DNA of 32,000 bases from Methylonatrum kenyense (GTDB lineage: Bacteria > Pseudomonadota > Gammaproteobacteria > Nitrococcales > Aquisalimonadaceae), in the NCBI RefSeq assembly GCF_023195885.1, contig NZ_JALPKO010000010.1:4665-36664 (forward strand). Reading direction: 5' to 3'. Positions 23,176-27,250 of the stretch are shown here, one piece after another. The notes beneath the pieces are model-generated. The model searched no databases, was not told the origin of the DNA, and saw only the letters and a program-made list of their open reading frames with translations. Positions within the stretch are counted from its first letter, which is position 1. Every line of letters starts with the position of its first letter. The position numbers and the translations under genes were made by a program.

Positions 23176-24378
23176 ATGCCCGAACTAGATGACATCAAAC
23201 CACCATATTCCCCGGCAAAATCCTGGTCCTTCCACAACCCGGTGCGCATCCACTTCGGCCGCGACGTACGCGCCAAACTGCCCGAGGAAATCGGTAGCCG
23301 CCGTTGTTTGATCGTCTCAACCCAACGCGGCCGAAAGCAATTCACCGAGGATCCACACCTGGGAGCAATTGCCGCCGCCACCGGCCACAACTGGCTGGAC
23401 ACTGTTACCGAAAACCCAGGCCTGCATTACCTGCAAGGGGAAATCGACCGTCTGGCGGGCAAGCCCTTCGACGCCATCATCGCCTTCGGGGGCGGCAGCG
23501 CCATGGACGCAGCCAAGGTACTGGCCATCGCCTTGTCCGACGCCGGTACGGGGAAAACCCTGGCAGACCTGCTTGCCAACCCGGATCTGCACAAGGATGC
23601 CCAGCCAAAGCCTGTGTACGCGATCCCCACCACGTCAGGTACCGGCAGCGAGGTAACACCCTTTGCCACGGTGTGGGACCACGAAACCAAGAAAAAACAC
23701 TCCCTGGCGGGGCCTGCAATGTTCCCCCATGCGGCCTATGTGGACCCGGCGCTGACCGACACTGTGCCACCTGAAGTGACACTTTCCACAGGCCTGGACG
23801 CAATCAATCAGGCCGCAGAGTCCATCTGGAACAAGAACGCGATCCCGATAACCCTGGATTTCGCCACCCGGGCGCTCCAACTGGGATTCGCTGCACTTCC
23901 CAAGCTGTTTGAGGGAACCGGCGGACAGGGAGAGCGGGACCAGATGAGCGAGGCTAGCCTGTTAGCCGGGTTGGCGATCAGCCATACCCGGACTGCCTTG
24001 TGCCACTCGATCTCGTATCCGCTCACCGCGCATTTTGGAGTGCCTCATGGGTTGGCGTGTGCGTTTACCATGCCTGCAGTTTTAGAGCTAAATGCGAACT
24101 TTGATGACGGGCGATTGGAAAGGTTGGCGCAACAGTTATTGGCGAACAATGCAGAGCTGACTTTGTTAACAACGGAATTTCGCCGACTTAATGAGAAGGT
24201 TGCTGTCTCCAGTATTATCAAAGATTACTGCGGGACGATCGAAAATATAAAGAATCTTTGTGCGGAAATGTATACTCGAGGACGGTCTGATCAAAATATG
24301 ACCAACGTTGATCAGAGTGTGCTTTTGTCGTTAATCGAGAGCGCTTGGTTCTCAAGGACACTTTCCCGTGACAGATAA
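23176..24378 (+). CDS. Group III iron-containing alcohol dehydrogenase, probable phosphonoacetaldehyde reductase (PhpC/FomC-like)
   Basis: GGGSAMDAAK and the His-rich CHSISYPLTAHFGVPHGLA motifs of Fe-ADHs. It is positioned directly after the mutase and decarboxylase. Confidence 0.75.
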   Translation: MPELDDIKPPYSPAKSWSFHNPVRIHFGRDVRAKLPEEIGSRRCLIVSTQRGRKQFTEDPHLGAIAAATGHNWLDTVTENPGLHYLQGEIDRLAGKPFDAIIAFGGGSAMDAAKVLAIALSDAGTGKTLADLLANPDLHKDAQPKPVYAIPTTSGTGSEVTPFATVWDHETKKKHSLAGPAMFPHAAYVDPALTDTVPPEVTLSTGLDAINQAAESIWNKNAIPITLDFATRALQLGFAALPKLFEGTGGQGERDQMSEASLLAGLAISHTRTALCHSISYPLTAHFGVPHGLACAFTMPAVLELNANFDDGRLERLAQQLLANNAELTLLTTEFRRLNEKVAVSSIIKDYCGTIENIKNLCAEMYTRGRSDQNMTNVDQSVLLSLIESAWFSRTLSRDR

Positions 24379-27250
24379 GGTAATAACCAGATCGGAGAGC
24401 GACCAATTCGCGGGATCAAACCCTGTAGAAAGGTATGGATTTATCGCCTGGAACCGATTCCAAGTCTCTCATTTTTACAATATTATAAAGAAATGTTTTA
24501 GGCCAGTATTAATAATTCCGTCAAATAGGGATTCCGACGACTTGCTTTCGATGATCGACTCCCTTGAGTCAGAGTTAATCTTAGAGACACTGATAATTCA
24601 CGAAAAAAAAATAGTGTCTCTGGATGGCGTTCTTGCATGTATATTTTCTCAAACAGATTTTTTCGGAGCCCACGCATTCAAAACCACAAAGGTGTTTTCC
24701 TTGCAATACAGCATGACCAAAGAGCGTCACCAATATGGTGCTTGGCACGCTGGTTTTGATGCTGCTTTAGTATACGGTGACTACTCAAAACGACGTTTAG
24801 AGTATTTTTGCCCTTCATTTGTTGTCGGGCATCCGAGAATAAGTCTGCAAGGTCGTCATTTCTCAGCAATGGCAAAGGCGGGCGCAGGCAAAATGACGCT
24901 CTTGTATGCCCCGACTTGGGGGGGGTTATCAAATTTTGACGAATTTCTAAAAGTTGTTGAAACGCTAAAACATTCTTTCAACGTGCTCGTTAGGCCTCAT
25001 CACAACTCCCTATCTCGGGAAATCGAAAAAGTTGGCGCTATACCGCTGGATGTTGGAGTGGGTGTCCGCGACAACTCCGCCTCTCAAATAGAAGCTTCCG
25101 ATATCGTAATATCAGATTATAGCGGATTTATTTTTGACGCTATATACTGCGGAAAACCAGTTATTCTTTTTCGTAAAAACTATACCAGCCTGTTAGGAAA
25201 AGAAAATCTTACAAGCGAGTCTATAGAGGTTTCAAGGGAATCCTTCATCGGTCCTGTTGCTAGATCTGGGGAAGAGCTGGTTGAGCTTCTAAGTAACTCT
25301 CCATTAAGCCTATTATCCACTTATAAAGAAAAAAACAATTATCTTAAAAACGAATGTTTTTCCTTCATCGAAGACCCAGCCGAAAAAGTTATCACCATCG
25401 CAAGGCAGTTTGGCAAGAGCGAGCTGTATGAATTGCGCACGGATCAGCAGAAGTGGTTAAAGGCTTATCTCGGGAAAACTTCTTCGAAACCGGCGCGGAA
25501 AAAAGAGAGTTTAAGAGATCGGGCAATGGGGAGTAGCGCCAAGAAAGCATCTTTGTTAACTCGGTGCAAGACCTTTCTTGCTAATAAAATAAAAGAAAAT
25601 CGAAACCTGTATGTTTCCACTTGTATAATGAGAGCCGCTCTTTCCAGAGGAAGCGCAAAATCCGACAGCATAAACAGGTTGGATGTGGTTGGTGAAGTTG
25701 GGATTGCCGGATCTCTGCACTGGGTTTTCAGAAAAAGAAATCATGAGGTTTCTGATAAGCTAATAAAGAGAATGCTCTGGAAAAAAGGAAACGTCTTAAA
25801 TAGGGGCTATTCTGAACGGCTGATTAAAAAGCTTGCGGTGGAGCAGGTCGATACGGTAGCTAATCTAAGGTTGGCCGCCGTGGGGGGTCGTAGGGAAAGA
25901 GTTTTACAGGTATATAACCGCTGCATCGATAAGTTATCTTCTGATGATACGGAAAAAGTAATAGACGGTTTCCGCGACCTTGTAAAGCTAAGAGACCTAA
26001 AGTCTGCGGTTGATATTTTCCTCCGAAATAAGGTTTTAGGAGCGGCTTCAGGGCGTCGGGCAGTGAAGCAACTTAATGAGGCTCTGGAGCGCACAAGCCC
26101 TTTAAAGGATGTGTGCGAAATGGCATGCCGTAATGAGCTGCTTCCTTTCGAAGAAATGGAGGCAATCGGATCGGGAGGTAATTTGATACATTTTTTTGTT
26201 CCCCCTCATTTTTACGCGGCTTGGGACTCCAGCGGGTTACGGGCACGGAACTGGGATGCTGTAAGAAGCATATACAGTAGATTGTTTGAATCTCTTAGAA
26301 AATCCGACACTCTTCGGCTCATTCCTCGGCATCAATATTTCCTTAATGTGTGCCCAGAAATGAGCGACCCCGCCCTTACCTTCTTTACAAAATCTGGAGG
26401 AAAAGGTAATTGGCATATAAAAGATCTTGGTCTGGGTGGTAAGGTATCTATTGATCCCGTGGGCTATTACGGCTCATCTGTGTTAAGCAGCCTCACGGAC
26501 TTCAGAGCCGTGAACATTGGTGGTTGGCCTGATTATGATCGCGGCATTAAGGTTTTAACGTCGTTCTACGAGACTGAAGGGGGAGACAAGTATAAGGGCT
26601 CTTCTGGTATTGGCCCGTGTGCTTCTGATTATGTTTTTGTTCCTTTACAGAGTACTCGTGGCTTGGAAGAGTGCTTTATTCCTGTTGAAAATCTTATAAA
26701 TAGTATGGCGGAATTGTTTGGGGAAATTGGAGTTCCTGTAGTTTTTAAGAAGCATCCGCTATGTAAAGATCCTCTGATAGATGCAGCCTTAAGTAAAGCG
26801 GTTATGAGAGAAGGCGTTTCCCATTCGGATTCGGACACGTGGTCATTGGTGAAGAATGCGCGAGCGGTGGTTACGATAAATTCTGGCGTGGGGCTGCAAG
26901 CGGTCGCGGCGGGAGTTAATGTCGTCACGCTCGGACCCAGTGATGTAGATGCTATCGCGTGGAAGGCTTCAATGAAAGATATTAAAGAAGTTGTAACTCA
27001 GGCGGTAAATGTCGATGTAGAGCAGTCTGATTACAATAAGTTCGCGAATTTCTATATGGAAAGGTATCTCGTTGATGTCGACAATGAAAAATCCGTCAGG
27101 GAGAGAGTGGAGTTGGCGGCAAGGATTTCCTTCCGGGCAAACGACAAGGATCAGGTAGTCAGTGAATTCATTTCATTTCTAAATGACCCCGCCGATGCGT
27201 TTGAAACTTCTGGAGACGATAAAAATGGTTTCAGTAGGGTCTTGTGTTGA
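24368..27250 (+). CDS. 960-aa two-module transferase: N-terminal TagF-like phosphotransferase module, helical basic linker, and C-terminal KpsC/KpsS (Capsule_synth)-like module
   Basis: N-terminus: LLYAPTWGG and [22 protein letters not shown] resemble the YAPTWR / DYSS..D....KP.I.F motifs of CDP-glycerol glycerophosphotransferases. C-terminus: [19 protein letters not shown] and [23 protein letters not shown] resemble KpsC/KpsS-type capsule proteins. About 40% GC. A GTG start overlapping the ADH stop by 11 nt is assumed. Confidence 0.6.

Follow-up and report, generated by a model that had tools for sequence, protein, structure and literature searches.

A fused phosphotransferase and Kdo-transferase-like protein between phosphonate and CMP-Kdo genes of Methylonatrum kenyense, a candidate for building phosphonates into surface glycans

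The window investigated in this study is a 32,000-nucleotide stretch of contig NZ_JALPKO010000010.1 of Methylonatrum kenyense. We observed in it an operon-like row of genes on the forward strand, in which genes for 2-hydroxyethylphosphonate (HEP; CyTase-Ppm, Ppd and Fe-ADH) lie upstream of a fusion gene, and genes for CMP-Kdo (KdsA, KdsB-KdsC and KpsF/KdsD) lie downstream, just as the preliminary description had placed them. The features are as follows.

20641..21957, + strand: fusion of CyTase (residues ~6-140) and PEP mutase (~150-434); Pfam CTP_transf_like and PEP_mutase
21954..23099, + strand: phosphonopyruvate decarboxylase (Ppd); NCBIfam TIGR03297, 467.5 bits (cut-off 312.5)
23176..24378, + strand: Fe-ADH, predicted phosphonoacetaldehyde reductase making HEP; Pfam Fe-ADH and ADH_Fe_C
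24368..27250, + strand: fusion gene, based on the ORF, Pfam, homologues and predicted structure
24431..25417, + strand: N-module, residues 22-350; GT-B phosphotransferase, CpsA (Cps7A) branch of the TagF-like family
24704..24733, + strand: predicted donor-polyol loop, residues 113-122, with Tyr114 at the TagF His444 position
24998..25003, + strand: His211-His212, equivalent to TagF His584, TarL His433 and Cps7A H198-H199
25418..26167, + strand: basic all-helical region, residues 351-600, about 11 helices; TPR-like by architecture
26168..27202, + strand: C-module, residues 601-945; GT99/GT107-like, CMP-dependent (beta-Kdo transferase-like)
26648..26671, + strand: QSTRGLEE, residues 761-768; QxxxD column with Gly765 at the nucleophile position, then conserved Glu767
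26747..26758, + strand: K-K-H-P, residues 794-797; (K/R)xHP CMP-binding motif
27225..28067, + strand: KdsA (Kdo-8-phosphate synthase); NCBIfam NF009109, 518.6 bits (cut-off 457)
28085..29374, + strand: KdsB-KdsC fusion (CMP-Kdo synthetase and Kdo-8-P phosphatase); NF009905, 316 bits; KdsC families, 136-139 bits
29371..30345, + strand: KpsF/KdsD arabinose-5-phosphate isomerase; TIGR00393, 348 bits (cut-off 203.7)
30981..31832, + strand: sulfotransferase-like ORF, 283 aa; Sulfotransfer_3, E = 0.0065, under the gathering score

With reference to the upstream genes, the PEP mutase domain scored 396 bits against NCBIfam PEP_mutase, over its cut-off, and the CyTase domain matched the Fom1 CyTase structure 5x3d with E = 1.6e-61 and 212 bits, compared with only 35 bits for TagD (1coz). 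The product of Fom1 is CMP-HEP (PMC6697681), and this first gene is predicted to yield phosphonopyruvate and, at a later step, CMP-2-hydroxyethylphosphonate (CMP-HEP). The top NCBIfam match of the Fe-ADH was Phn_Fe-ADH/PsrA, at 324.6 bits under the equivalog cut-off of 423.7. Downstream, the likely start of KdsA is ATG 27225 (mechanical ORF start 27183), with GGAG 9-10 nt before it. Starts and stops overlap by 4 nt between Ppm and Ppd, 11 nt between ADH and fusion gene, about 26 nt between fusion gene and kdsA, and 4 nt between kdsBC and kpsF. A composition break was noticed at about 24050-24100, within the Fe-ADH gene, GC3 being 0.71 before 24051 and 0.39 after it, which implies that an Fe-ADH already stood just ahead of the fusion gene in the horizontally acquired block. 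The sulfotransferase-like ORF has homologues in the phosphonate-type loci L008, L043 and L085 and in no TagD-type locus, and is tentatively assigned to the system. Neither an aminotransferase, a stand-alone TagD, LicD nor any of KpsM/T/D/E/C/S was found in the window, which also shows no genes for export or anchoring.

The fusion gene runs uninterrupted from GTG 24368 to TGA 27250, encodes 960 aa and has a GC content of 44%, against 60-64% upstream, so the single low-GC ORF described earlier stands. Its NCBI entry, WP_248568600.1, starts at Met62 and, with 899 aa, is 61 residues too short. We rejected that start because it cuts off residues 22-61, which are kept in all homologues of the alignment (F25, W28, N29, F31 and Q32 are invariant) and make up the opening beta-alpha-beta unit of the predicted Rossmann fold (pLDDT > 90). 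As these residues are conserved and no in-frame start other than GTG 24368 precedes them, that GTG is taken as the true start. Pfam identified Glyphos_transf at residues 173-310 (31.5 bits; gathering score 22.1) and Capsule_synth, barely over threshold, at residues 792-857 (21.9 bits; gathering score 20). The five motif blocks quoted previously were all recovered, at residues 178, 247, 755, 791 and 834, and sequence profiles, structure prediction and fold search bear out the proposed TagF-like, helical and KpsC/KpsS-like architecture. The ORF is thus confirmed as one intact gene in three parts, a phosphotransferase module, a helical region and a Kdo-transferase-like module.

Against the PDB, the profile of the N-module matched Cps3D (4.5e-15), TagF (5e-9) and TarL (4e-7), and its fold search returned Cps3D, TagF, Bcs3 and TarL. 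Over about 350 residues it shares 32-33% identity (E about 1e-48) with the CpsA orthologues of Actinobacillus, proteins of 380 aa in which Y94 and H198/H199 stand just where they were published for Cps7A. In Cps7A, Y94 superimposes on TagF H444, within a QYG variant of the WHG motif, and this enzyme, the characterised relative of the N-module, puts glycerol-3-phosphate specifically onto beta-Kdo (PMC11666461). The fusion reads Q113-Y114-S115, and so has, as in Cps7A, a tyrosine at the position of the catalytic His444 of TagF. In the HMM alignment, counted from residue 505, H211 faces TagF H584, and both His211 and His212 are invariant in 40/40 sequences; the TagF His584 / TarL His433 position touches the donor phosphate and helps CMP departure. 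The check for TagF catalytic histidines therefore succeeded for H211 and failed for His444, and because Tyr114 replaces the latter, we regard the N-module as CpsA-type and reject a TagF-type polymerase, for which only one of the two histidines is present. Loop 299-308 of TarL binds the donor polyol, and this loop sets polyol specificity in TarL and TagF (PMC10901376); residues 113-122 were placed on it by motif register via Cps7A.

The middle region is basic and helical, as had been proposed, with 54 K+R against 31 D+E in 255 aa, a pI of 10.06, and an all-helical prediction (helices H396-590). No TPR match was found by sequence in the 960-aa fusion, whereas the equivalent region of split relatives does match TPR families and structures.

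Modelled alone, the C-module reached a pLDDT of 85 and a pTM of 0.87, and all of its top 12 fold matches were KpsC or WbbB. Its profile matched WbbB (1.7e-6) and KpsC (9e-4) in the PDB, and its family profile aligns motif by motif with one genuine KpsC and two KpsS proteins. The active-site motifs of KpsC/KpsS were recovered in part, since the Gln and the (K/R)xHP are kept and Gly765 stands in place of the nucleophilic Asp. The role of (K/R)xHP is CMP binding; the Asp of QxxxD, conserved absolutely across GT99, GT107 and GT140, is their nucleophile, and mutating it abolishes turnover in WbbB, KpsC and KrkA (PMC12887879). QxxxD is present in 36/40 of the two-module relatives, and QST[RK]GLE[ED] was found in four proteins, the window fusion, P0002, P0006 and P0007; judging from this alignment, the window subclade has lost the otherwise conserved nucleophile. 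As the Asp of the characterised retaining beta-Kdo transferases is absent, the activity and donor of the C-module are uncertain.

Comparatively, the two modules form a conserved pair: dozens of genomes encode them fused or side by side, and KdsA, KdsB-C and KpsF are frequent neighbours. Most relatives adjoin a TagD gene (CDP-glycerol) and a minority adjoin the HEP cassette; in at least four lineages besides that of the window, the cassette immediately precedes a family member. The combination of cassette, fusion gene and Kdo genes recurs in L011 (Rhizobiales) and L043 (Pseudoxanthomonas), two unrelated genomes in which the locus is of the ABC-transporter glycan type. In the donor loop, Gly115/Asn122 was found in 41/41 TagD-linked loci, and Ser115 with Q, V or A at position 122 in 6/6 Ppm-linked loci, an association that covers only these 6 loci from about 4 lineages, related sequences not being independent. 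In the NJ tree, clades holding Ppm-linked members contain no TagD-linked member. No Ppm or TagD gene lies near L012 and L046, two loci of the Ser115 type whose 10-kb flanks are complete. Genuine KpsC and KpsS coexist with the two-module family in related loci, which indicates that its C-module is a separate paralogous lineage.

We propose, with a probability of about 0.5, that the fusion is a bifunctional glycan-assembly enzyme which uses the operon-made CMP-HEP and CMP-Kdo for HEP-phosphonyl and Kdo transfer, probably alternately. The use of both CMP-activated donors, suggested in the preliminary description, is strengthened by the Fom1-like CyTase and the donor-loop covariation, and that overall interpretation is partly supported. 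By close homology, PEP mutase, Ppd and Fe-ADH would supply HEP, the Fom1-like CyTase domain would convert it to CMP-HEP, and KpsF, KdsA, KdsC and KdsB would provide CMP-beta-Kdo. CMP-HEP is a close structural analogue of CDP-glycerol. The N-module would take it in place of CDP-glycerol and transfer hydroxyethylphosphonyl to a hydroxyl of a Kdo residue with release of CMP; after Cps7A and TagF, Tyr114 would occupy the base position and His211/His212 would act on the phosphates, and Ser115 and Gln122 would fit the loop pocket to the shorter C-P-linked donor. The C-module may hold CMP-Kdo via K794-x-H796-P797 and N838-S839, and the Kdo carboxylate via Gln761, and would pass Kdo to the free 2-hydroxyl of the newly added HEP or to another acceptor. 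With Gly765 instead of Asp, this transfer could not take the canonical covalent Asp-Kdo route; either Glu767 would be a replacement nucleophile, or the C-module would use direct (inverting) displacement. The least certain steps are the alternation of the modules, which the basic helical (TPR-like) region would keep together in the manner of TagF-like capsule polymerases, and the polymer product, which would be teichoic-acid-like, [-Kdo-O-CH2CH2-P(O2-)-]n, each repeat containing a C-P bond. To our knowledge, the kind of enzyme that places phosphonate groups in cell-surface sugars has so far escaped identification, and the fusion is a strong candidate for it.

A polymerase is plausible, but homology does not imply polymerisation, because the characterised relatives include single-addition enzymes (Cps7A; WbbB GT99). 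It is possible, though somewhat doubtful, that other enzymes build the glycan and the same two activities contribute a single Kdo and a single HEP-phosphonyl to it, as a primer, a linker or a chain-terminating cap. This would parallel the closest characterised module relatives, Cps7A, which primes a poly-Kdo linker, and WbbB-GT99, which ends a chain with one beta-Kdo (PMC11666461; PMC12887879). Further glycosyltransferases occur in related loci, GT4 and GT2 in L043 and GT4 in the Pseudomonas locus L015, the latter suggesting that the module pair need not be the sole polymer-building enzymes; HEP also offers one hydroxyl only, which the recurring sulfotransferase-like gene of phosphonate-type loci could block. 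On the other hand, a phosphotransferase, a long helical region and a glycosyltransferase make up the architecture of TagF-like capsule polymerases, the private CMP-Kdo set (KdsA, KdsB, KdsC, KpsF) suggests high Kdo demand, and no further transferase is visible in the window's operon.

That the N-module is an ordinary CDP-glycerol glycerophosphotransferase, with TagD encoded elsewhere, HEP attached by another enzyme or not to this glycan, and the HEP-gene neighbourhood a by-product of recombination, appears unlikely. NCBI and JGI name the protein so, we know of no characterised PF04464 member that uses anything other than a CDP-polyol, the G+C of the HEP genes differs strongly from that of the fusion gene, and the two Ser115-type loci without Ppm nearby would agree. 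However, the window is without TagD, the cassette precedes relatives in the other lineages, the donor-loop residues separate TagD from Ppm contexts without exception, start and stop codons overlap, and the composition break lies within the Fe-ADH gene rather than between genes, so that the linkage predates the transfer. It is quite improbable, too, that the C-module of the window subclade is a dead glycosyltransferase, serving as a CMP/Kdo-binding or scaffold domain beside an N-module that is the only enzyme. The glycine at a position essential in WbbB, KpsC and KrkA, and the lower model confidence of loop 760-772, would fit such a domain, but the four proteins with the variant motif are 34-37% identical overall and keep it, the Gln, (K/R)xHP, NSG and many other C-module residues invariant, which speaks for selection to keep the active site working, and the operon devotes four genes to CMP-Kdo. 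As for a sequencing or assembly error that merged two genes, a frameshift of the kind foreseen in the preliminary description, the modules are separate adjacent genes in many genomes; yet independent fused homologues of 900-1240 aa, full-length at 22-37% identity, were found in several metagenomes and cultured genomes, and the linker is modelled as a continuous helical domain with high confidence, which makes this hardly conceivable.

Among known systems, the Kdo-specific transition transferase Cps7A/CpsA of Actinobacillus pleuropneumoniae (PF04464; PMC11666461) shares with the N-module of the fusion the GT-B fold, the Q-Y-x motif, the His-His pair and the basic helical segment after them, and its proven acceptor, beta-Kdo, is the sugar whose supply genes flank the fusion gene. 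Unlike the fusion, Cps7A is a stand-alone protein of 380 aa beside a glycerol-3-phosphate cytidylyltransferase and uses CDP-glycerol, whereas the window N-module is fused to a second transferase, lies behind a CMP-HEP pathway, and carries Ser115/Gln122 instead of the Gly/Asn seen in every TagD-linked member. The TagF-like capsule polymerases (Cps3D/Cps7D, Bcs3) and the teichoic acid polymerases TagF/TarL are the top PDB sequence and fold matches of the N-module. Cps3D, too, is a single chain that unites a TagF-like phosphotransferase with a glycosyltransferase and a helical (TPR) domain, and its products are polymers in which sugar and polyol-phosphate alternate; its domain order is TPR-CgoT-CgaT, compared with phosphotransferase-helical-GT in the window, and its partner is a UDP-hexose GT-B rather than a CMP-dependent Kdo-transferase-like module. 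The fusion further differs from these polymerases in being without the catalytic His of the WHG motif and in its predicted donor, a CMP-phosphonate. With KpsC/KpsS (GT107) and WbbB (GT99), the C-module shares SKY, the Gln of QxxxD, (K/R)xHP and the (N/T)S-G nucleotide-binding motif at equal spacing, and like KrkA (GT140) it sits in a bifunctional capsule-type enzyme. Its similarity to KpsC/WbbB is very low (13-14% identity in fold alignments), and the window subclade has Gly for the nucleophilic Asp, which most of the wider family keeps. For the upstream gene, the nearest known systems are Fom1 of the fosfomycin pathway and the PntC-type phosphonate cytidylyltransferases; like Fom1 it is a CyTase-PEP mutase fusion, and its CyTase domain is very similar to that of Fom1. 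In the fosfomycin pathway, CMP-HEP is short-lived and goes on to radical-SAM methylation. Here the radical-SAM gene is absent and glycan transferase genes adjoin instead, and for this reason CMP-HEP is predicted to serve as a transfer donor.

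The fusion gene of Methylonatrum kenyense encodes a protein that is almost certainly a CpsA-type phosphotransferase module joined to a GT107/GT99-like CMP-dependent module. The gene had been described in advance as a single low-G+C ORF of three parts situated between genes for 2-hydroxyethylphosphonate (HEP) and genes for CMP-Kdo, and this outline was upheld. We observed that the 960 codons at window 24368-27250 (+) are uninterrupted, that the gene has 44% G+C compared with 60-64% for the genome, that the five sequence blocks quoted in the preliminary description are present at residues 178, 247, 755, 791 and 834, and that the HEP set lies upstream and KdsA, KdsB-KdsC and KpsF downstream. 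The fusion is genuine and not a product of joined genes, as independent metagenomes and genomes likewise carry the fused form, in homologues 900-1240 aa long. An AlphaFold model made from 40 homologues (mean pLDDT 84.8, pTM 0.70) also gave the three parts:

Residues ~22-350: N-module, a GT-B module
Residues ~351-600: helical region, all-helical in the model, strongly basic (pI 10.06)
Residues ~601-945: C-module, a second, two-domain alpha/beta module

The 255-aa region between the two modules showed no TPR match by sequence, whereas the equivalent region of the relatives does match TPR families. In the public record, WP_248568600.1 / MCK8516965.1 from this gammaproteobacterium is exactly the fusion protein minus its first 61 residues (899 aa; the omitted part is window 24368-24550), and WP_248568600.1 is named only as a 'CDP-glycerol glycerophosphotransferase family protein'. 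Its start at Met62 is too far downstream, because residues 22-61, among them F25, W28, N29, F31 and Q32, are kept in every homologue and form the first beta-alpha-beta of the Rossmann fold, with pLDDT > 90 in the model. GTG 24368, with AAGGA 10 nt upstream, is the sole in-frame start codon before these residues and is the correct start of the gene.

The fusion gene and the flanking HEP and Kdo genes are arranged in an operon-like manner, with overlaps of 4-26 nt between neighbouring genes, and the features around it are as follows:

20641-21957: CyTase-PEP mutase (Ppm) fusion; the Fom1 CyTase structure is the close match of the CyTase domain (1.6e-61), compared with 35 bits for TagD
21954-23099: phosphonopyruvate decarboxylase (Ppd)
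23176-24378: Fe-ADH; the best family is the phosphonate-pathway reductase, with a score below its equivalog cut-off
27225, likely ATG start: KdsA, strong score; GGAG 9-10 nt upstream, 26-nt overlap with the fusion gene
28085-29374: KdsB-KdsC fusion, one protein of 429 aa, strong score
Downstream of KdsB-KdsC: KpsF/KdsD, strong score
30981-31832 (+): sulfotransferase-like ORF, 283 aa; Sulfotransfer_3 E = 0.0065, below threshold; motifs GFGWSGSGAL and VDRDPRDSYYERR

As shown by close homology, the operon would be able to make both CMP-HEP and CMP-Kdo. Fom1 is an enzyme shown to make CMP-HEP (PMC6697681), and the KdsB-KdsC fusion is also found in several related loci. An aminotransferase, a stand-alone TagD, LicD, KpsC/S and export genes were all absent within the 32-kb window; likewise, none of KpsM/T/D/C/S was found in this window, which stops 1.7 kb past kpsF. 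Cps3D-type polymerases, by comparison, belong to ABC-transporter (kps) capsule loci. Further upstream, a 654-aa Polysacc_synt_2 protein at 10849-12813 (+) is a nucleotide-sugar dehydratase of the CapD/WbpM type (414 bits), and therefore the wider region may be a surface-polysaccharide region extending beyond the operon. A NusG-family gene (166 aa, 17275-17775 (+)), 3 kb upstream of the operon, possibly encodes an RfaH-like antiterminator. It is followed at 17956-17963 by an exact ops-core 8-mer (GGCGGTAG), which we rejected as an RfaH ops element because one exact 8-mer is the chance expectation in 32 kb.

The G+C content falls inside the Fe-ADH gene at ~24050-24100 and not at a gene boundary, GC3 going from 0.71 to 0.39, and the low-G+C block covers the last ~110 codons of that gene through the window end. 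This composition, the only basis for the event, suggests that the block was gained by recombination within the Fe-ADH gene. Since the break lies inside the gene, the donor in such a homologous recombination would itself have had Fe-ADH immediately before the fusion gene, and this speaks against the HEP genes and the fusion gene having come together by chance. A mosaic test comparing the similarity ranking of the two halves of Fe-ADH was uninformative.

The TagF-like assignment of the N-terminal part was confirmed by the Pfam match to PF04464 Glyphos_transf at residues 173-310 (31.5 bits; gathering score 22.1), by the family profile against the PDB (Cps3D 4.5e-15, TagF 5e-9, TarL 4e-7) and by Foldseek, where the two-Rossmann GT-B fold was best matched by Cps3D, TagF, Bcs3 and TarL. 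In TagF-like enzymes, the His of the WHG motif (TagF H444, TarL H300) is the catalytic base, while a second His (TagF H584, TarL H433) contacts the donor phosphates. Only one of these two His residues is retained: HMM alignment to TagF set His211 opposite His584 and Arg157 opposite Arg511, but the H444 position is, by motif register, occupied by Tyr114. H211 and H212 are invariant in 40/40 sequences and are the only invariant His residues of the family, so that no invariant His equivalent to TagF H444 or TarL H300 exists in the N-terminal subdomain across the family alignment. Q113-Y114-S115 stands at the place of the WHG motif, the Tyr being assigned to the H444 position by motif register with Cps7A. 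The missing His is explained by the CpsA/Cps7A branch, which has Tyr there. Cps7A of Actinobacillus pleuropneumoniae (380 aa), a Kdo-specific transition transferase, transfers glycerol-3-phosphate from CDP-glycerol onto beta-Kdo; its form of the motif is QYG, whose Tyr94 superimposes on TagF H444, and its H198/H199 take the His584 position (PMC11666461). In Actinobacillus, our genome scan disclosed genes for 380-aa proteins that agree exactly with Cps7A in the positions of Tyr94 (in QYG) and His198/His199; a TagD-type gene comes after each of them. The N-module is 32-33% identical to such CpsA orthologues over 344-355 residues (E = 9e-49 and 6e-48). The N-module is of the CpsA type and not of the classical TagF type. 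His121 was also considered as the equivalent of TagF His444 and ruled out, since family members vary between H, Y, W and T at position 121 and the Cps7A paper puts the equivalent at the Tyr of QYG (PMC11666461). Firmicute TagB/TagF-like genes were discarded as a classical outgroup because they belong to the same QYG-type subfamily.

For the C-terminal part, the proposed likeness to KpsC/KpsS was borne out by Pfam Capsule_synth (21.9 bits, just past the gathering score of 20), by the family profile against the PDB (WbbB of GT99 1.7e-6, KpsC 9e-4) and by the module modelled alone (pLDDT 85, pTM 0.87), whose twelve best fold matches were all KpsC or WbbB structures. The family C-module profile could be aligned motif by motif (SKY, QxxxD, K/R-x-H-P and (N/T)S-G) with genuine KpsC, in both its modules, and with two KpsS from related loci. 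The Asp of QxxxD forms the covalent Kdo-enzyme intermediate. Conserved across the retaining Kdo transferases are this nucleophilic Asp, the carboxylate-binding Gln of the same motif and the HP motif that binds CMP, while the position of the general-base Glu varies between GT families (PMC12887879). The expected active site is thus present in part: Gln761 (invariant in 40/40 sequences), K794-K795-H796-P797 (a column conserved in the family and aligned with KpsC KVHP/KPHP) and N838-S839 are in place, but Gly765 replaces the nucleophilic Asp. The Asp is kept in 36/40 two-module relatives, its column being confirmed against genuine KpsC/KpsS, and Gly765 occupies it in the fusion protein and the relatives P0002, P0006 and P0007. 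The motif QST(R/K)G-L-E-(E/D) is displayed by the fusion protein and its three nearest relatives, which are 34-37% identical to it. A first metagenome scan with QST(R/K)G subclade patterns gave no match, and a second yielded two short fragments as the only further examples. Decay of the site would be one explanation of the loss; however, the variant motif is kept at 34-37% identity inside an otherwise conserved active site, which points to a derived but functional site. As to how such a site would work, the candidates are that the nucleophile has moved to Glu767 or that the reaction has become a direct displacement.

The family became visible by exhaustive representative search, which gave 90 cluster representatives at E <= 1e-30; a word-index homology search with alignment returned the same five proteins only. 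Dozens of the 90 representatives are two-module proteins of ~900-1000 aa, and the others include lone N-modules of ~370 aa and lone helical-plus-C-module proteins of 550-750 aa. Across 80 genome loci, the two modules are often separate adjoining genes, and therefore the fusion is one form of a conserved functional pair. The Pseudomonas locus L015 harbors TagD, a CpsA-like gene, a TPR-plus-Capsule_synth gene, KdsA, KdsB-C and KpsF together with its own genuine KpsC and KpsS, a GT4 and acyltransferases. Because both kinds occur in this locus, the linker-building KpsC is distinct from the C-module lineage, which is an additional paralogue specific to the locus. KpsS/KpsC and ABC-transporter genes are contained in L015 and in the related locus L011. 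The TagD-linked pair with Kdo genes and genuine KpsC/KpsS was noticed at L015 1-23380 (Pseudomonas sp. NPDC096917) and similarly in L021, L030, L014 and L016; from their gene content, loci of this type appear to specify an uncharacterised capsule type, possibly with Kdo and glycerol phosphate in it. In L002, upstream of the gene for P0002, a short out-of-context stretch at ~480-640 (+) resembles the family N-terminus ('GFLVWNQFQVTRF...'); lying ~450-600 bp upstream of the intact gene, it is probably the remnant of a duplicated or recombined copy.

With regard to the donor, a TagD-type gene, whose enzyme makes CDP-glycerol, adjoins the N-module in 41 loci. Instead of it, a Ppm-type cassette is found in six: the window, L011 and L078 (a pair of genes from the same Rhizobiales contig), L043 (Pseudoxanthomonas), L008 (Woeseiaceae) and L068 (Micropruina, an actinobacterium), representing about four lineages. 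Ppd and/or Fe-ADH were not detected in all six, L078 lacking both within its 1-kb margin. The order of the window (cassette, fused gene, Kdo genes) is repeated in L011 and L043, both being ABC-transporter glycan loci. In the Rhizobiales locus L011, a TauE/SafE-family anion permease gene (9137-9895) separates the Fe-ADH gene from the fusion gene, and an IS-type integrase gene (13976-14806) stands between the latter and an ABC-2 permease gene. In L008 (1-21104, a Woeseiaceae MAG), the HEP cassette is found by a CpsA-like-plus-TPR gene, a CMP-sugar synthetase, a NeuB-family nonulosonic-acid synthase and a Poly_export gene, which suggests HEP on nonulosonic acid rather than on Kdo. The Micropruina MAG locus L068 encodes a CpsA-like N-module fused to a Stealth hexose-1-phosphate transferase (9926-12736 (+), 936 aa) and, adjoining it, a 1046-aa protein in which a nucleotidyltransferase, an Fe-ADH and a LicD are joined (12733-15873 (-)), in addition to Ppm and Ppd. 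The contexts of L008 and L068 indicate that the link of the N-module to the HEP cassette is independent of a Kdo-transferase partner. L068 thus represents another putative phosphonoglycan locus, with both candidate transferase kinds present.

Scanning of the N-module alignment showed positions 115 and 122 to be the cleanest columns parting the two contexts. Gly115/Asn122 was recorded in 62 sequences (41 TagD-linked, none Ppm-linked and 21 without a donor gene nearby) and reaches distant Firmicute members, while Ser115 with Gln, Val or Ala at 122 was recorded in six Ppm-linked members, no TagD-linked member and six without a donor gene nearby. By motif register, and not by superposition, residues 113-122 correspond to TarL 299-308 (W-H-A...) and position 115 to TarL Ala301. 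This TarL loop is the donor polyol-binding site, which sets ribitol versus glycerol selectivity, and Ala301 packs against the polyol (PMC10901376). In a rough neighbour-joining tree, Ppm-linked members fall in clades without TagD-linked members. Pfam scans of the full flanks of the Ser115-type loci L012 and L046 disclosed no alternative donor-supply gene, and no Ppm or TagD either. Homologues of the 283-aa sulfotransferase-like ORF (L008 17264-19378 (-), L043 16591-18639 and L085 2443-4410) were detected in phosphonate-type loci or loci of the Asp-less subclade, and in 0/41 TagD-type loci. Usually they make up the C-terminal half of a longer protein (~650-700 aa), and in two of these proteins the N-terminal half gives weak, sub-threshold TPR-like matches. 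The product of the 283-aa ORF may sulfate the glycan or the HEP hydroxyl.

The joint reading of these data, to which we give a probability of about one in four, is that Ser115-type modules are the missing glycan phosphonyl-transferases acting on CMP-phosphonates and that the Methylonatrum fusion is a poly(Kdo-2-hydroxyethylphosphonate) polymerase whose Kdo half is without the Asp nucleophile. The N-module would take CMP-HEP, an analogue of CDP-glycerol in which the bridging P-O-C is P-C, and would link the hydroxyethylphosphonyl group as an ester to a hydroxyl of Kdo, in the way that Cps7A attaches glycerol-3-phosphate. That CMP-HEP is the donor is predicted with good likelihood. The C-module would use CMP-Kdo as the source of a Kdo residue, with the free hydroxyl of HEP as a plausible acceptor; this Kdo transfer is predicted by a narrow balance in its favor, our confidence being reduced because the nucleophilic Asp is missing. 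By alternating, the two modules would give rise to a poly(Kdo-HEP) chain, and the basic helical region would play the part that the TPR domain has in TagF-like capsule polymerases. A polymerase rather than a single-addition enzyme is a tentative prediction, with the odds leaning somewhat towards single addition. Should the joint reading be true, the product would have a teichoic-acid-like backbone with a phosphonate ester for every phosphodiester and a C-P bond in each repeat, and a Kdo-transferase half working through the relocated Glu767 or an inverting mechanism would be a variant not yet seen in GT99, GT107 or GT140.

HEP clusters of unknown product feature in reviews of phosphonate gene neighbourhoods. 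About 5% of bacterial genomes encode phosphonate biosynthesis, most of this capacity being thought to decorate cell surfaces (PMC8942020). HEP and methylphosphonate are the commonest phosphonates in marine high-molecular-weight dissolved organic phosphorus (PMC8931226), and the steps after cytidylyl activation have been called 'enigmatic', with only LicD-like transferases suggested (PMC6697681). Our full-text literature searching found no paper tying PF04464/TagF/CpsA-type enzymes to phosphonates, nor HEP to Kdo glycans. A recognisable HEP transferase family with a two-residue signature would make the post-cytidylylation steps directly testable and would let phosphonoglycan producers be spotted in genomes. 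Under the polymer reading, the product would be analogous to teichoic-acid-like capsules but would resist hydrolysis, and the enzyme could be used to make phosphatase-stable glycopolymers. For glycosyltransferase mechanism, it is of separate interest that the Asp nucleophile has been lost from a Kdo-transferase-like module that is conserved and apparently functional.

Each building block of this system is already known. New are the predicted switch of a CpsA-type enzyme to a CMP-phosphonate donor, with its residue signature; the pairing of this CpsA-type module with a Kdo-transferase-like module, in a family uncharacterised even in its TagD-linked form; and the Asp-less variant of the Kdo-transferase site. 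Compared with Cps7A, which has QYG and His-His, the N-module has the Tyr and His-His, with Ser instead of Gly as the third motif residue. CpsA genes adjoin a glycerol-3-phosphate cytidylyltransferase (CpsB/TagD), whereas the window has a CyTase domain only as the Fom1-like fusion to Ppm. Cps3D-type polymerases combine a phosphotransferase, a glycosyltransferase and TPR in one chain; the fusion protein has both catalytic modules, but its helical region is without a TPR sequence match.
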